Shown here: positions 40,997 through 55,372 of the stretch, piece after piece
Layout: every line of letters begins with the position of its first letter
Position numbering within the stretch: position 1 is the first letter of the stretch
Notes under the pieces: generated by a model
Database searches by the model: none
What the model was told of the DNA's origin: nothing
The model's input: the letters and a program-made list of their open reading frames with translations, nothing else
Made by a program: the position numbers and the translations under genes
Source: Shigella phage SFPB
Strand: one strand, 5' to 3'
DNA length: 64,000 bases
Sequence record: OQ031072

Positions 40997-41007
40997 AATT
41001 AATATAA

Positions 41008-41030
41008 GGGTCTCTTCGGAGACCTTTTTT
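41008..41030 (+). terminator. rho-independent terminator (GGTCTC-TTCG-GAGACC type)
   Basis: GGGTCTC ttcg GAGACC then TTTTTT. Confidence 0.6.
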
Positions 41031-41045
41031 GCATTAGGAGTCAGA

Positions 41046-43187
41046 ATGGTTAAAGTACAAATTATTAAGAAAGACGGTTCACTGGAAAAGCCAAACGTAA
41101 ATAAAATCGTCGAAGCAGTTACCAAGTCAGCTAATAGAGTTGGCTACAAAGAGTTACCACTAGAAGTTACCCATGCTCTTGAATCAGCCTTTATGAGACT
41201 GCTTGTCAGAGCAACTAATCAGAATGCTATGCTCATCTCTGTAGATGATGTTCACAGTATTGTAGAAGGGACTCTGGCAGAGGTAAACCATGAAATCTAT
41301 GAGTCATATTCAACCTACAGAAACTATCGTAAAGAGGTTGCACAGAATTGGGATGAACTTTACCAGAAAACTAAAGACACACTCTTCTTAGGTGACCGTG
41401 AGAATGCTAACTTTGACAGTAGCTTAATCTCTACAAAAGGTTCAATCATCCGTGGATATTTGACAAAAGAAATCTTTAAGCAGTATCACTTGACACCAGA
41501 AGAAGCAAGTGCTATTGAAGATGGATTCATTTATATCCATGACTTAAGAGACTTAATCTTCGGTGGTATTAACTGTTGCTTGTTTGACATGGGAAGCGTC
41601 TTGAAAGGTGGTTTTGAAATGTCAGGCATCGAATACTGTGAACCAAAGTCTGTACTTTCAGCTTTACAGGTTATTGGTGACGTTGTACTCTCAGCAACTG
41701 CACAGCAATTTGGTGGGTTTACTATCCCAGAGATTGACAAGGTTCTTGTGCCATATGCTAAGAAGTCTTTTGAGTATCATCTGGAGAAAGCAAAGCAGTA
41801 TAATATCCCAAGTAAAGAAGTATACCACTACGCTAAAGAGCAACTTCAGATTGAGCTAACCCAAGGCTTCCAATCTCTGGAAATGAAACTGAATACAGTT
41901 CCTTGCAGCCGTGGTGATTTTGCATTCACAACTTTAACGTTTGGTTTACTCGAACCAGATATGGCTAGTGAAGATAACCGCTTGCAATTTATGATTGCAA
42001 AGACTATTCTTGATGTGAGAATGAATGGTCAAGGCAAGTCTAAGAAGCCTGTTGTATTCCCTAAACTGGTTTACATTTATGATGAGACAAGGCACATGTT
42101 AGACCCTTGGCAGGGAACTCTTTATGACAAAGCTATTGAGTGCTGTTCTAAAGCTATGTATCCAGACTTCTTAAGTGTTTCTGGTCATGGTTCTGTTGCA
42201 GAAGCTTTTGAGCGTTCAGGTGCAGTCATCTCTCCAATGGGTTGTAGGGCTTTCTTATCACCATATTATGATGAAGATGGTAAAGAGTTCTACACAGGGC
42301 GAGCAAATATCGGTGCAGTATCTCTTAATCTGCCAATGATTTACAAGTATTCTGAAGAGAATGGTTTAGACTTCTGGACAGAACTTGACAAATACCTTGA
42401 AATGATTCGAAGCTTCCATAAGAAGCGTTATGAGATGATTGCTAATATGCCAGCAAGCTCTAACCCTTTAGCTTTCACACAAGGTGGATTGTATAAAGGA
42501 CATAAGAAGCCAACTGATAAGATTGGTTGGGATACTGTTAAGTCTTTTACAGCATCTTTTGGCGTGACCGCATTAGATGAATTAACAGTGCTTGCTCAAG
42601 GTAGAAGATTGCATGAGTCTGATGGTGATATTGCAAGCAAGGTTTTAAGCTATCTGAATAGCAAGCTGGAGCAGTTTAAGCAGGAAGACGGCTTCCTGTA
42701 TGCACTTTATGGTACACCTGCTGAGAGTCTTTGTGGTACGCAATTGAAGCAGTTTAGAAATATGTTCGGAGTTGTTAAAGGTGTTTCTGATAAAGAGTAC
42801 TTTACAAACAGTTTCCACATGAATGTTGGTGCAGACATTACACCGTTTGAAAAGCAAGACTTAGAAGAACCTTTCTTCCACTCTTGTAATGGAGGCCATA
42901 TCATCTACTCAAGGTTAGCCAATCCTGAGAACTTGCAAGCTATCAGGGCTTGTGTAACAAGGGGTATGGGTAAAGGATTCTATCAAGGTATCAACTTTGA
43001 CTTAGCAATCTGTGAAAATTGTGGTCACAGACCTAACAAAGATGTTGAACTATGCCCTAAGTGCAACTCCCATGATATCTCTGTGATTAATCGTGTGTGT
43101 GGTTATCTAGGTTGGACTAAGATTAAAGGTACTTCCAGAATGAACGATGCAAAAATTGCAGAAATCAAGGACAGAGTATGTATGTAA
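41046..43187 (+). CDS. nrdD: anaerobic ribonucleotide reductase, class III; start trimmed to ATG after terminator and AGGAG
   Basis: C-terminal glycyl-radical motif RVCGYLG and Cys4 zinc site CENCGH...CPKCNSHD. Confidence 0.9.
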   Translation: MVKVQIIKKDGSLEKPNVNKIVEAVTKSANRVGYKELPLEVTHALESAFMRLLVRATNQNAMLISVDDVHSIVEGTLAEVNHEIYESYSTYRNYRKEVAQNWDELYQKTKDTLFLGDRENANFDSSLISTKGSIIRGYLTKEIFKQYHLTPEEASAIEDGFIYIHDLRDLIFGGINCCLFDMGSVLKGGFEMSGIEYCEPKSVLSALQVIGDVVLSATAQQFGGFTIPEIDKVLVPYAKKSFEYHLEKAKQYNIPSKEVYHYAKEQLQIELTQGFQSLEMKLNTVPCSRGDFAFTTLTFGLLEPDMASEDNRLQFMIAKTILDVRMNGQGKSKKPVVFPKLVYIYDETRHMLDPWQGTLYDKAIECCSKAMYPDFLSVSGHGSVAEAFERSGAVISPMGCRAFLSPYYDEDGKEFYTGRANIGAVSLNLPMIYKYSEENGLDFWTELDKYLEMIRSFHKKRYEMIANMPASSNPLAFTQGGLYKGHKKPTDKIGWDTVKSFTASFGVTALDELTVLAQGRRLHESDGDIASKVLSYLNSKLEQFKQEDGFLYALYGTPAESLCGTQLKQFRNMFGVVKGVSDKEYFTNSFHMNVGADITPFEKQDLEEPFFHSCNGGHIIYSRLANPENLQAIRACVTRGMGKGFYQGINFDLAICENCGHRPNKDVELCPKCNSHDISVINRVCGYLGWTKIKGTSRMNDAKIAEIKDRVCM

Positions 43188-43633
43188 AGGAGCTTCTTTG
43201 CTACAATCCAGAAAATGGTGAAATAAGATGGAAGAGTGACGGCAGCCTTGCTGGAAGTAAAATTTCAGGAGGCTACATTCTCATAACACTTCCAGATGGT
43301 TCCAAAGAATATGCTCACAGACTGGCATTCTTACTTATGGGTGAAGAGATACCTGAGTTAGTAGACCACATCAATGGTATTAGAGATGATAACCGTTGGA
43401 GCAACTTAAGAAGCTCTAACAAGGTTGATAATGCTTGTAATGCTAAATTAAGAGATGACAATAAAACAGGGTATAAAGGTATTTCTTGGGACTCTTCGAG
43501 AAAGAGGTGGAGAGTTTCAATAACCTATAACAAAAGGACAGTTTCCAAGAGATTCAAAAACTTTGAAGATGCTGTAGAGTACATGCAAGACTTAAGATTG
43601 GAACTTCATTCACAGTACTGTAGGTTCAAATAA
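43178..43633 (+). CDS. HNH homing endonuclease-like protein
   Basis: AHRLAFLLMGEEIPELVDHINGIRDDNRWSNL (HNH_3-like); basic C-terminal domain. Confidence 0.6.
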   Translation: MYVKELLCYNPENGEIRWKSDGSLAGSKISGGYILITLPDGSKEYAHRLAFLLMGEEIPELVDHINGIRDDNRWSNLRSSNKVDNACNAKLRDDNKTGYKGISWDSSRKRWRVSITYNKRTVSKRFKNFEDAVEYMQDLRLELHSQYCRFK

Positions 43634-45236: not shown

Positions 45237-45548
45237 ATGGAAAAGGTTTATAACACTCGTAAAATTCAGATTTCTATCCTGTGCCAGTTTATGGCTGATA
45301 AACACAACTCCCACTATTGTGGTACAGGTTTCCTTACTCTAGGTGGTGGCTACATTAGCTTCAAAGAAGCTGTGAAGATGTATAATGAGCACCCTGAAGA
45401 TGACAAAGAGTTGAAACAACTGAAGCTTACTTATGACAAGAAGCGTAAGAAAATTATCTGCTTGAACAATTTTATCAAGCCAACTGAGAACGTCTATGAT
45501 GCAATTGGTGAAGAAGGCTTCTTCAAAGTCTTGAAATTAACTCAGTAA
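45237..45548 (+). CDS. hypothetical protein
   Basis: 103-aa ORF with SD. Confidence 0.45.
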   Translation: MEKVYNTRKIQISILCQFMADKHNSHYCGTGFLTLGGGYISFKEAVKMYNEHPEDDKELKQLKLTYDKKRKKIICLNNFIKPTENVYDAIGEEGFFKVLKLTQ

Positions 45549-45561
45549 ATGTATATGATTA

Positions 45562-45590
45562 GGGAACTGTAAAAGGTTCCTTTTTATTTT
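45562..45590 (+). terminator. rho-independent terminator with TGTAAAAG loop
   Basis: GGGAAC tgtaaaag GTTCC then TTTTTATTTT; same loop as terminator at 4855. Confidence 0.55.
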
Positions 45591-45599
45591 GGAGAAATC

Positions 45600-46115
45600 A
45601 TGTACCATTCAAATCTGAAACGTGCTGCTGCAATGTCTGTTCTTCGTCTTGATTTTGATGAGCGTCAAGAGTTTATCGATTCACATCAGTATGACCCTTC
45701 AAATTCTAACCACATGGTACTTTGGAACCGTGGTAAGTTTCGTGATAGTGCCTTGTTCCAGTACTACCCTCACTATACTATTGACAACCTCTATGAATAC
45801 TGTGTTGTCAAGAACACTATTGCAACCCTTAATAAGCTTTGTAGATATTCTGGAAAGAAAGCTTTCACATTAGGCCACCATAAGCCCGTGACAAAAGGTG
45901 GAGAGCACCATTGCTCAAACTGGTTTATCCAGACTCAAGAAGATAACCAGAAGCAGGGAGAGAAGCTTCCAGAGGCTCCTAAGATGACTTGGGAGGAACA
46001 GAAAGCATATCTTAAAAATAATATGCCACCAATGCTTGACAGGGAATATGCAGTTCTGGCAATATCACTCTTGTTGAAGCTTGAGACAGTTTATGAGGCA
46101 ACTTATCATGGCTAG
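45600..46115 (+). CDS. HNH endonuclease-like protein
   Basis: LGHHKPVTKGGEHHCSNWFIQTQEDNQKQGEK (HH...GG...N...N..K). Confidence 0.5.
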   Translation: MYHSNLKRAAAMSVLRLDFDERQEFIDSHQYDPSNSNHMVLWNRGKFRDSALFQYYPHYTIDNLYEYCVVKNTIATLNKLCRYSGKKAFTLGHHKPVTKGGEHHCSNWFIQTQEDNQKQGEKLPEAPKMTWEEQKAYLKNNMPPMLDREYAVLAISLLLKLETVYEATYHG

Positions 46116-46386
46116 AGAACAATGGGATATCAAAGAGCTAATTAGCGAAGCTGGAAATGGTAGTGAGATGTATATGATACGTGGTCACGTCCCAGATGCA
46201 CTTGCTATTGAGATGATAGACCACTACTCCAACGGATTCTATAAAGAGTTTGGAGAGCCAAATATTGAACGTACTTGGACAAAACCAGTACCAGACGGAA
46301 CAGGAAACTGTTCAGTTATCTACCATATTGTAGACCCAAAGAAATGTAAATCAGCTATGGCTGTAACATTTGTAACTTTTGATTGA
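46108..46386 (+). CDS. hypothetical protein; start trimmed
   Basis: SD GAGG; 92 aa. Confidence 0.4.
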   Translation: MAREQWDIKELISEAGNGSEMYMIRGHVPDALAIEMIDHYSNGFYKEFGEPNIERTWTKPVPDGTGNCSVIYHIVDPKKCKSAMAVTFVTFD

Positions 46387-46396
46387 GAGAAATATT

Positions 46397-47278
46397 ATGA
46401 AAACTACTATTCGAGTTCTACTTAATTCAAATTCCAAAGGTTCTCATCAAGAGACCTTCAACATTATCCAGTTCCCTTCTGGGGAGATTGGTGGTAACTT
46501 CTCAGAAGACTTAGTAGACTTTGCTGAACATGCTGCTGGTAAGATTGAAAACGTAATATTCACTGTACAAGGTTATGACAAAGACACACTCTTTGCATTG
46601 GCTATGGCTAAAGAAGCAATTGACCGTTTGATTCCTCAGAAAGCAACCCTGAAAACTGTTGTCTTTGGATTCTTACCAAATGCTCGCTATGACCGTCACA
46701 TGTTTAAAGGTGATGCAGCAGCACTTAAAGTCTTTGCAAATCTTGTAAATGCTATGGAGTTCGATGCAGTATGTGCTCTGGATACTCACAGTAATGTTGC
46801 AGAGAATTTGTTTAAGAGCTTCTACAACCTCCCTCAAAAAGAGGCAGCAGTCCACTTTGCAAGTGACCCACGCATTGATTACTTAGTGGCTCCAGATGCA
46901 GGTGCAGCTAAGAAGACTGAAGAGGCTGCTAAAGAGGTTGAGAAACCTTACATTACAATGGCTAAGGTACGAAACCTGAAAACTGGTGAAATCACTGGTA
47001 TGCGAATCCTTGATGATGTAGACTTGACAGGTAAGACCGTCATGATTCTGGATGATATCTGTGACGGTGGTCGAACATTTATCGAGGCTGCAAAGTATCT
47101 TCGTGAAGCTGGAGCAGAACGTGTAGAACTGTATGTCACTCATGGGATTTTCTCTAAAGGTGTTGAAAATCTCCTTGACAATGGTATCGACCATATCTAC
47201 ACTACAAACTCACTAGGGGATGAAAAAGACCGTGGTCTTTCCCACTTCTCACAAGTGACCGTAGCAAATATTGAATAA
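46397..47278 (+). CDS. ribose-phosphate pyrophosphokinase (Prs)-family enzyme; candidate ADP-ribose pyrophosphokinase (Adps-like); start trimmed
   Basis: Prs architecture: N-domain FPSGEI, DTHS segment, phosphoribosyltransferase loop GKTVMILDDICDGGRTF. Confidence 0.7.
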   Translation: MKTTIRVLLNSNSKGSHQETFNIIQFPSGEIGGNFSEDLVDFAEHAAGKIENVIFTVQGYDKDTLFALAMAKEAIDRLIPQKATLKTVVFGFLPNARYDRHMFKGDAAALKVFANLVNAMEFDAVCALDTHSNVAENLFKSFYNLPQKEAAVHFASDPRIDYLVAPDAGAAKKTEEAAKEVEKPYITMAKVRNLKTGEITGMRILDDVDLTGKTVMILDDICDGGRTFIEAAKYLREAGAERVELYVTHGIFSKGVENLLDNGIDHIYTTNSLGDEKDRGLSHFSQVTVANIE

Positions 47279-47286
47279 AAACTTTA

Positions 47287-47302
47287 GGGGCTGAAAAGCC
47301 CC
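47287..47302 (+). other. intergenic GGGGCT-GAAA-AGCCCC hairpin (no U-tract) between Prs-like and Nampt-like genes
   Basis: perfect 6-bp stem with GAAA loop. Confidence 0.4.
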
Positions 47303-47322: not shown

Positions 47323-49149
47323 ATGACTAAATCAATCTATGCAGTACCAGCAGGTCTTAATGCAGATGCTTATAAAGCGGGTCATATCTATCAGTATCCA
47401 GATGCTACACAGTATCTTATGTTGAACTTAACACCTCGTGGAGATAAATGGTTTAACTCTCCGTTAGAGATTGATGGTGTTGTAGCTTTTGGTATTCAGC
47501 GTTTTGTAAAAGACTATCTGGTAGACCACTGGAATGCAACGTTCTTTGAACGTGATAAGAAAGAAGCCATTGACGAAATCTTGGAAATCATGAATGGTGT
47601 CCTTGGTGCAGATACTATTGGTCGTCAACATTGGGAAGAACTTCATGACTTGGGTTACCTACCTGTTGAAGTCTACTCTGTAGAGGAAGGTACAATTGTC
47701 CCTATGCGTGTCCCGATGATTGTCTTCAAAAATACTGTAGAGGGATTCCATTGGGTAGCTGGTTACCTTGAAGATGCTTTCTCTGCTGAAATCTGGAAAG
47801 CTTGTACGATTGCAACTATTGCACTGCATTACAAACGTATTTGTAAGCAATGGGCTGATTTAACCTGTGACAACGACTCCCATTTACCTTGGCAGTGTCA
47901 TGACTTTGCAATGCGTGGCATGTCTGGCTTCACAGATGATGCGTTTAACGCAGTAGGACACCTGACAAGCTTTAAAGGCACTGACAGCTTCCCTGCTGTC
48001 TACACTGCTAAACGTTCTTATGGTCAGTTTATGGAAGTAAGTGATATCGGCAACTCTGTACCAGCTACTGAACACTCTGTGATGTGCGCAAACATTTCAT
48101 GGAATATGAAAGACTTGTCAGAGGAAGATATTCATTCACAGTACATCATGCGGTCTGATAGCTTGCTGGATGCAAAACGTTGGCGTGGTGAGGTTAAAAC
48201 CTTTGAGCATTTACTGGTAGACGTATATCCAACTGGTATTGCAAGTGTTGTTTCAGATACTTACAACTTCTGGCGTACTGTTACAGAGATTCTGCCAGAG
48301 CTACGTAATGTAATTCTGAATCGTGATGGTAAGTTGGTAATTCGTCCAGACTCTGGAGACCCTGTTCACATTGTTACAGGTTACAAAGCCGTTGAATGGG
48401 AAACTGCTAAGTCAATGTTCTACAAGCACATGAAAGGTCTTGCACCAGATAATACCCATCTGCATGACACAATCTTGAATTGTGAAATGTCTGATATTGG
48501 TTTTGGGTTCTCTGCTTGGTTAATCTCTGAAGGTTATGAGATGGTTGTTGAAAATGAAGATTTTGATTATATTGATACAATCAACCTGATTACCGCTCAG
48601 AAAACTGGACAGTTTACTGTGAAGCGTATGTTAACAGCAGAAATTGATGGAGCTATCCACACGCTGTATAACATATTTGGTGGCACTGTTAACTCCAAAG
48701 GGTACAAAGTACTGGATGAGCACATTGGGCTAATCTACGGTGATTCTATCACTCTGGAAAGGGCTAATGAGATTCTGTCACGTCTTGCTGATAAAGGTTT
48801 TGCAAGTTCTAACGTGGTGTTTGGTGTAGGCTCATATACCTATCAGTACCTGACCCGTGACACCTTTGCATTTGCTGTTAAAGCAACTCTTGCACAGATG
48901 GATGGTCAAGAAATTATGCTGGCTAAAGACCCTAAAACTGACAGTGGTCTTAAGAAGTCTGCTTTTGGTGGGGTTGTCCCTATGTGGGATGGTGACAAGC
49001 TGGTAGCTGTAGATGGTTTTGGATTTGCAGAGTTTGAAGGTGCAATTGACAATTGCCATAGTGCTTTGAAACTGGTATTTAGCAATTCACAGGCTTGTAA
49101 CCGTGTTAACCTGCGTGATGTTCGAAATACTATTGACAAGCAACTTTAA
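47323..49149 (+). CDS. nicotinamide phosphoribosyltransferase (Nampt/NadV)-family enzyme; candidate Namat-like
   Basis: LNADAYKAGHIYQYP, HDFAMRGMSGF...FKGTDSF and IRPDSGDP segments align with Nampt. Confidence 0.8.
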   Translation: MTKSIYAVPAGLNADAYKAGHIYQYPDATQYLMLNLTPRGDKWFNSPLEIDGVVAFGIQRFVKDYLVDHWNATFFERDKKEAIDEILEIMNGVLGADTIGRQHWEELHDLGYLPVEVYSVEEGTIVPMRVPMIVFKNTVEGFHWVAGYLEDAFSAEIWKACTIATIALHYKRICKQWADLTCDNDSHLPWQCHDFAMRGMSGFTDDAFNAVGHLTSFKGTDSFPAVYTAKRSYGQFMEVSDIGNSVPATEHSVMCANISWNMKDLSEEDIHSQYIMRSDSLLDAKRWRGEVKTFEHLLVDVYPTGIASVVSDTYNFWRTVTEILPELRNVILNRDGKLVIRPDSGDPVHIVTGYKAVEWETAKSMFYKHMKGLAPDNTHLHDTILNCEMSDIGFGFSAWLISEGYEMVVENEDFDYIDTINLITAQKTGQFTVKRMLTAEIDGAIHTLYNIFGGTVNSKGYKVLDEHIGLIYGDSITLERANEILSRLADKGFASSNVVFGVGSYTYQYLTRDTFAFAVKATLAQMDGQEIMLAKDPKTDSGLKKSAFGGVVPMWDGDKLVAVDGFGFAEFEGAIDNCHSALKLVFSNSQACNRVNLRDVRNTIDKQL

Positions 49150-49163
49150 AACAGTATGATAAG

Positions 49164-49187
49164 AGGCTCCTACGGGAGCCTTTTTAA
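49164..49187 (+). terminator. rho-independent terminator
   Basis: AGGCTCC tacg GGAGCCT then TTTTT. Confidence 0.6.
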
Positions 49188-55337: not shown

Positions 55338-55348
55338 AGTTATTATAG

Positions 55349-55372
55349 AGGCTCCTTCGGGAGCCTTTTTCA
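55349..55372 (+). terminator. rho-independent terminator
   Basis: AGGCTCC ttcg GGAGCCT then TTTTT. Confidence 0.6.

Follow-up and report, generated by a model that had tools for sequence, protein, structure and literature searches.

X171, a resident phage gene with a predicted HNH nuclease fold upstream of the NARP1 genes of Shigella phage SFPB

Does the small HNH-type open reading frame lying upstream of the NAD+ genes of Shigella phage SFPB mark a recent insertion, and with it a mobile NAD+ module, or is it a resident gene of the phage? We addressed this question in a stretch of 64,000 nucleotides of the phage (record OQ031072), hereafter the window, to which all coordinates refer. The first-pass annotation had seen at 45600-46115 a second HNH-type endonuclease gene, bracketed by a terminator and the NAD+ genes, and had taken it for a homing endonuclease insertion flagging the NAD+ module as recently acquired cargo. 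We call this gene and its product X171.

The X171 locus and its putative transcription unit

The open reading frame is real: it encodes 171 aa, has an ATG and a GGAG ribosome-binding site, and contains the motif on which it had been recognized, LGHHKPVTKGGEHHCSNWFIQTQEDNQKQGEK, at aa 91-122 (45870..45965). The features around it are the following.

45237..45548, + strand: 103-aa gene upstream of X171 (Pfam DUF7390; PHROG "unknown function")
45531..45559, + strand: putative sigma-70-like promoter, TTGAAA-17-TATGAT, with 10/12 consensus matches
45561..45582, + strand: terminator-like hairpin, AGGGAACTGTAAAAGGTTCCTT then TTTATTTT, annotated as a terminator in phage Michonne (CPT annotation)
45591..45594, + strand: ribosome-binding site GGAG, seen in the sequence 5 nt 5' of the X171 ATG and invariant in the alignment
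45600..46115, + strand: X171 coding sequence, 171 aa, ATG at 45600 (open reading frame call; PHROG family phrog_3500)
46108..46386, + strand: Y92, 92-aa open reading frame of phrog_4726 (unknown function), conserved in Mooglevirus, Suspvirus and Felixounavirus only
46397..47278, + strand: Adps (Prs-like ADP-ribose pyrophosphokinase), first NARP1 gene (Pfam Pribosyltran / Pribosyl_synth)
47323..49149, + strand: Namat (Nampt-like nicotinamide ADP-ribose transferase), second NARP1 gene (Pfam NAPRTase / NAMPT_N)
49133..49160, + strand: putative promoter abutting the next hairpin
49161..49184, + strand: strong terminator-like hairpin with a T-run, which would close a four-gene unit

The region is 96-98% identical to that of Mooglevirus phages (Ounavirinae, Felix O1-like). 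X171 itself is 100% identical to gp103 of Shigella phage Sf17, labelled "hypothetical protein", and corresponds to Felix O1 ORF125 and Bas63 gp77, while Adps and Namat are the orthologues of Bas63 genes 79 and 80. The PHROG family phrog_3500, of unknown function, covers X171 over its full length (E 2e-93). The protein has a pI of ~7.7, which does not clearly mark it as DNA-binding, and its only cysteines (68, 81 and 105) form no pairs for zinc.

A terminator had been placed upstream of X171, and a T-run hairpin is indeed found there, at 45561..45582; in Felix O1 this element is known as terminator t124 (PMC3185647). The promoter begins within the last part of the upstream gene, and a single nucleotide separates it from the hairpin. 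Sf17, Michonne, SUSP1, Bas63 and Felix O1 all keep the -35, the -10 frame, the hairpin and the ribosome-binding site, even though synonymous divergence among these phages is saturated (dS 1.2-1.9). The same composite, a promoter -10 abutting a T-run hairpin, recurs on the + strand at 41006..41027, 45561..45582, 49161..49184 and 55347..55368, so that, of 17 + strand terminators of the hairpin/T-run kind, 4 have a sigma-70-like promoter at a distance of 0-1 nt. Such composites may be terminate-and-restart modules dividing the early/middle region into units. Transcription starting ~7 nt after the -10, near 45566 in the case of X171, would begin inside the 5' arm of the hairpin, and new transcripts would for this reason escape the terminator that stops upstream ones. 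How transcription passes the many terminators was left open in the Felix O1 genome paper (PMC3185647). In the RT-PCR of that phage, ORFs 124-130 fall together in the 25-min class, with a maximum at 25 min, and the X171 homologue (ORF125) is itself transcribed with its maximum at that time (PMC3185647). From consensus matches and conservation, on which we base both the promoter and the transcription unit, X171 appears to head a middle-phase unit of four genes, X171-Y92-Adps-Namat, in which Adps is probably co-transcribed with X171. In its native setting, the NARP1 "two-gene operon" of Bas63 would then probably belong to a unit of four genes that opens with two uncharacterised ones.

The NAD+ genes do lie downstream of X171, but they do not abut it directly, the 92-aa Y92 frame being placed in between. 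The ATG of Y92 overlaps the stop of X171 (ATGGCTAG), an arrangement that suggests translational coupling of the two genes, and the Y92 stop lies 10 nt before the Adps ATG. Y92 has a dN/dS of 0.02-0.12 within Mooglevirus and Suspvirus. We considered it as a conserved partner of X171 and rejected it, the linkage being absent outside Mooglevirus, Suspvirus and Felixounavirus; the DUF7390 gene was rejected as a partner too, being adjacent in only some Ounavirinae and variable in order. The latter gene evolves fast (53% identity to Bas63, dN/dS 0.23-0.32). In Sf17, 3HA14, KPS64 and other GenBank records it is labelled 'HNH / homing endonuclease'; Pfam and PHROG give no HNH signal in its product, and the label looks misplaced or unsupported. 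Several public records would thus have given the name "HNH endonuclease" to a neighbour of X171 instead of to X171 itself.

One ENA contig of 1355 bp encodes a 259-aa fusion of DUF7390 and X171 (protein P0014), in which a deletion leads to in-frame reading through the 3' half of the intergenic hairpin (…KGSLFYFGDD-MYLSN…). This may be an assembly artefact or a natural deletion variant. We rejected it as a true fusion, given the deletion through the hairpin and its occurrence in a single 1.3-kb metagenomic contig.

Predicted fold and active site

No Pfam model matches X171, and no curated HNH model reaches its own threshold on it. Within the X171 family, 4 of the 26 members match Pfam HNH (PF01844), all below the cut-off (best E 0.0085). 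Signals from other collections are weak as well, and all converge on aa ~59-160: PHROG HNH families match aa ~59-139, phrog_2214 best (E 2.2e-5), five further PHROG HNH or endonuclease VII families match at E 5e-4 to 0.03, and the HNH part of the NCBIfam IscB model matches at E 5e-4, far below the model cut-off. An exhaustive search of 1.84e9 proteins (cluster representatives) with the family profile yielded only 19 clusters at 50% identity. Among the matches is P0052 (E 4e-6), a protein with three Pfam-verified HNH/HNH_5 domains (8e-13 against HNH_5). Furthermore, the distant member P0054 has the canonical DH...N...HN motif, and hhalign aligns the X171 family to it with an E of 8e-8. Judged from these profile comparisons, the resemblance of X171 to HNH proteins exceeds chance. 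PADLOC returned nothing relevant, and in the PDB neither sequence nor profile searches yielded anything beyond a spurious match to Protein A and BPSL1038 at E 0.5.

The likeness to Protein A concerns aa 13-52 (45636..45755), which resemble the IgG-binding repeat of the Staphylococcus protein (L-x-x-E-x-R-x-x-F-I-x-S-x-x-x-D-P-S-x-S). Its profile E of 2.6e-7 is inflated by five tandem repeats, single repeats giving E values of about 6-25, and the likeness of the N-terminal helices is probably a convergent three-helix motif.

An AlphaFold2 model built from the family alignment (pLDDT 90.1, pTM 0.86) places two strands, aa 89-93 and 108-112, before a helix at 113-119, that is, the beta-beta-alpha-metal topology is present in the predicted structure. 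The top Foldseek matches of the model are HNH domains, at non-significant scores. The His-Me finger read earlier from the letters thus finds its counterpart in a predicted nuclease fold, and the model supports the view that X171 has the fold of an HNH nuclease. The core is laid out as follows.

45864..45956, + strand: beta-beta-alpha-metal (HNH) core, aa 89-119, made up of a strand (89-93) ending in H93, a GG loop with H103, N107, a strand (108-112) and a helix (113-119) with N116

In the alignment of the 26 family members, which reaches down to 36% identity, F89, L91, H93, G100, G101, H103, N107 and Q111 are invariant, and G92, P96, W108, I110 and N116 nearly so, N116 being kept in at least 90% of the family. 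The N-terminal part has invariant residues too, namely R22, R48, Y55, Y59, D62, N63, E66 and N72. Strand 1 closes with the position of the catalytic His, which is H93 in 26/26 members and is also kept in the distant ones. When the family is aligned to the HNH segment of SpCas9, G92, H93, N107 and N116 fall on D839, H840, N854 and N863, with the spacing from N107 to N116 equal to that of N854 to N863; this alignment is non-significant alone (hhalign E 0.36), and its register is the expected one.

Cas9 (D839), T4 endonuclease VII and the colicins carry an Asp or His metal ligand before the catalytic His. In the core X171 family this position is a nearly invariant G92; of the distant members, P0049 and P0054 alone have an Asp there (DH). 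The X171 active site could be impaired or rebuilt. One reading of this substitution is that X171 is HNH-like but impaired in catalysis and does no more than bind a ligand, be it nucleic acid or something else, perhaps serving DNA metabolism as a regulator or scaffold. Gly92 in place of the ligand, the failure of every curated HNH model to reach threshold and the neutral pI all agree with it, but H93, N107 and N116 are kept under strong selection whereas dead domains usually lose such residues, and the distant members P0049 and P0054 retain DH. Moreover, a family of His-Me fingers, the DRGH nucleases such as Serratia nuclease, lacks the Asp or His before the catalytic His and works with 'GH' and a single Asn ligand. 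We therefore consider a purely binding role unlikely. Missing DH/HH lowers, and does not exclude, membership of X171 in the His-Me fingers; because GH/single-Asn nucleases exist, nuclease activity of X171 is plausible by analogy.

X171 consists of an N-terminal helical extension (aa 1-55) followed by a Cas9/IscB/McrA-like HNH domain (aa ~59-165). In an active enzyme H93, the last residue of the first strand, would act as the general base, N116 on the helix would hold the divalent metal, possibly together with the family-specific invariant H103 or with D115, and N107 would brace the loop. Such an enzyme would cut or nick a phosphodiester bond, DNA being the likeliest substrate.

Distribution, selection and the homing question

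X171 had been described as the second HNH gene of the region, and a first one is present indeed.

43178..43633, + strand: HNH_3-AP2 gene whose start overlaps the nrdD stop (Pfam HNH_3, E 6.7e-11, above the cut-off)

The product of this gene also gives a weak AP2 match (E 0.005, below the cut-off). The gene is absent from this locus in 172/172 related records; only Mooglevirus CHB7 and Silverhawkium have a 73% homologue beside nrdD. Next among its matches come genes that T5-like phages carry in multiple copies (about 46%), and the family occupies 2890 places in 2018 records. It is a genuine free-standing homing-type gene. Other mobile genes are found around the same positions: SUSP1 has an endonuclease gene after nrdD, an HNH gene is inserted between Adps and Namat in SUSP1 and Felix O1, and in Bas63 an endonuclease gene is borne by an intron in nrdD, annotated as two joined pieces with the homing endonuclease gene in the intervening sequence (L014 1..2569). 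Unlike that of Bas63, nrdD of the window is uninterrupted. The 44-nt Adps-Namat spacer of the window holds a GC-rich palindrome, GGGGCTGAAAAGCCCC (47287..47302), with no + strand T-run; this spacer is the intergenic position of the HNH gene inserted in SUSP1 and Felix O1.

X171 is distributed in another manner. A tblastn search found it at 430 places in 428 phage records, that is, in single copy. At 60% identity or more, 246 records have it and 255 have the neighbouring Namat; about 96% of close relatives carry it once and in the same gene context. The order nrdG ... X171 ... Adps-Namat ... rIIA is the same in metagenomic relatives and across five Ounavirinae groups, namely Mooglevirus, Suspvirus, Felixounavirus (Felix O1, Bas63), Kolesnikvirus and Hafnia phage Zyzzx. 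The comparative genomics of this junction thus gave no sporadic empty-site pattern. X171 also occurs in Stephanstirmvirinae (rV5-like) and in a few T4-like phages.

Selection on X171 resembles that on its neighbours, with a dN/dS of 0.06-0.12 compared with 0.08-0.11 for Adps and 0.13-0.21 for Namat, and so does its divergence (77% amino-acid identity to Bas63, where Adps reaches 81% and Namat 76%). Purifying selection acts over the whole length of the protein, N-terminal domain included. No GC anomaly is seen at the gene, and a Pfam search found no homing-type DNA-binding module (AP2, NUMOD or IENR1) in its product. X171 is a fixed, vertically inherited, single-copy gene of the Ounavirinae and not a mobile homing endonuclease. 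That it is a recent mobile insertion flagging the NAD+ module as new cargo, as the first-pass annotation proposed, we hold to be extremely improbable: the HNH fold and the position between a terminator and the NAD+ genes agree with the proposal, but subfamily-wide synteny, flank-like divergence, a dN/dS of ~0.1, single-copy status and unremarkable composition contradict it. The NAD+ module, likewise, is fixed in place across the subfamily, which does not fit recent mobile cargo. An HNH motif beside accessory genes hence need not mark recent horizontal acquisition.

The only loss of X171 that we saw is a cassette replacement in the Escherichia phage GEP101 (Felixounavirus), in which aa 38-171 of X171 and aa 1-57 of Y92 are replaced and NARP1 is kept. 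The locus (L022 3501..4596) reads as a 38-aa X171 stub, a methyltransferase and the last ~35 aa of Y92; the cassette is a frameshifted N6/N4 DNA methyltransferase with DPPY and SAM-binding motifs, and the phage is a viable isolate. Because this viable phage has exchanged X171 for a methylase cassette while retaining NARP1, we infer from its genome that X171 is dispensable and non-essential.

Could X171 be a former homing endonuclease that has been domesticated? It would in that case be an ancient free-standing HNH gene, now fixed, that still cuts a specific site in related phages lacking it or differing from it, with an advantage in co-infection (marker exclusion) like that of the T4 Seg/Mob enzymes. 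The region is a hot spot of real homing genes (after or inside nrdD, and between Adps and Namat), X171 is dispensable and was exchanged for another cassette in one phage, and its HNH fold is supported. On the other hand, its near-universal presence in the lineage leaves few targets, it lacks an AP2, NUMOD or IENR1 module in Pfam searches, it is single-copy, and the strong purifying selection extends over its whole length, the N-terminal domain too. We regard such an origin, with cutting activity retained, as a doubtful explanation.

NARP1 linkage, probable role and comparison with known systems

Osterman et al. showed the two Bas63 genes to be NARP1, in which NAD+ is rebuilt from ADP-ribose: Adps first pyrophosphorylates it, and Namat then couples the resulting compound with nicotinamide. 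The two genes suffice in vivo and in vitro (bioRxiv 10.1101/2024.02.11.579819). Two NARP1 helpers have been described, the Macro phosphatase Adpp and the RyR-domain glycosidase RyDEP, and our literature search found no paper linking NARP1 with an HNH gene.

X171 is linked to Adps-Namat in all Ounavirinae-like loci, and in one contig (L010) the linkage is kept in another order, Adps-Namat-X171. It also lies ~2 kb from a Nampt-type gene in the T4-like phage S13 and in a 167-kb metagenome-assembled genome (L018), and 3-4 kb from nadR/pnuC in KP13-26. In Stephanstirmvirinae, however, it is flanked by nrd genes on one side and a DNA helicase gene on the other, and the Namat homologue is 66-74 kb away. 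Namat/Nampt genes are present in ~2019 phage records versus 428 for X171, and ~80% of the Namat-bearing records lack X171. Taken together, the absence of linkage in Stephanstirmvirinae, this ~80%, the function of two-gene NARP1 and the case of GEP101 indicate that X171 is not an obligate component of NARP1, for which it is not required.

These data bear on the most interesting of the alternatives, and the least likely when set beside a domesticated homing enzyme and a binding-only protein: that X171 takes some product of NAD+ breakdown, or a nucleotide signal, that stems from the defence and makes it a substrate of NARP1, or helps NAD+ recovery in another way. Probable co-transcription with Adps-Namat, shared middle timing in Felix O1, the linkage kept in the re-ordered contig, the proximity to Nampt-type and nadR/pnuC genes in S13, L018 and KP13-26, and the precedent of helper enzymes adjacent to NARP1 (Adpp, RyDEP) all plead for it. 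Against this stand its distance from the Namat homologue, beside a helicase, in Stephanstirmvirinae, the small number of X171 records next to those of Namat/Nampt, the sufficiency of the two-gene system and the possession of NARP1 without X171 by GEP101; in addition, we know of no HNH enzyme acting on ADPR-type small molecules. We judge a helper role very unlikely. The bolder form of the idea, in which X171 leads an extended NARP1 operon as an HNH-fold hydrolase recruited to the NAD+ arms race rather than a general DNA nuclease, is in our opinion just as much of a long shot; if true, X171 might process a nucleotide product or signal made by the defence, or destroy a nucleic-acid part of an NAD+-depleting defence system.

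The explanation that we favour, with confidence somewhat better than even, is that X171 is a non-essential DNA nuclease or nickase of HNH fold, fixed in the Felix O1-like and rV5-like groups, belonging to phage DNA and nucleotide metabolism and standing first in a middle-phase unit. The gene lies beside nrdD/nrdG in Ounavirinae and beside a DNA helicase and nrd genes in Stephanstirmvirinae. As an accessory DNA-metabolism nuclease it might break down host or competitor DNA and feed the adjacent nucleotide-salvage genes, or it might nick DNA in replication or recombination. Two more specific roles were considered and rejected: orthology to endonuclease VII, as T4-like genomes with X171 also have a separate gp49, and a packaging-associated HNH function, as no terminase gene is near X171.

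Our analysis provides a first fold-level annotation of phrog_3500. Of the 428 phage records with a match, all those listed call its members "hypothetical protein" or leave them without annotation; among the carriers are Felix O1, Bas63 (a BASEL phage) and many coliphages and Salmonella phages that are candidates for therapy. Within the known HNH superfamily, X171 is a divergent new member. Like the Cas9/IscB (Pfam HNH_4-type) and McrA-type HNH domains, it has a beta-beta-alpha-metal core flanked by helices, and it shares the spacing of SpCas9 H840, N854 and N863 (His-14-Asn-9-Asn), followed in both by a G-[DE]-x-[LV]-P stretch. It differs from them in being a stand-alone protein of 171 aa with its own N-terminal three-helix extension, in having Gly for Asp before the His, in working, if it does, without a guide RNA or a modification-reading domain, and in a similarity that stays below every curated threshold. 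Gme HNH (PDB 4H9D), one of the small stand-alone HNH nickases, and most Pfam HNH/HNH_5 proteins have an Asp-His pair and Cys-based zinc sites, whereas X171 has neither.

I-HmuI, the F-Tfl enzymes of T5-like phages and the HNH_3-AP2 gene of the window belong to the same catalytic superfamily, and X171, like free-standing homing genes, is found in the RNR/nucleotide-metabolism region, a frequent site of their insertion. Yet those genes are sporadic, multi-copy, equipped with AP2-type modules and missing in most close relatives, whereas X171 is fixed, single-copy and module-free. Finally, T4 endonuclease II (DenA) is a GIY-YIG nuclease that degrades host DNA and is encoded beside nrd genes. It offers a possible functional analogy, that of a small non-essential nuclease gene inside a nucleotide-metabolism cluster; the two proteins share no homology, and degradation of host DNA by X171 is to be read as an analogy only.
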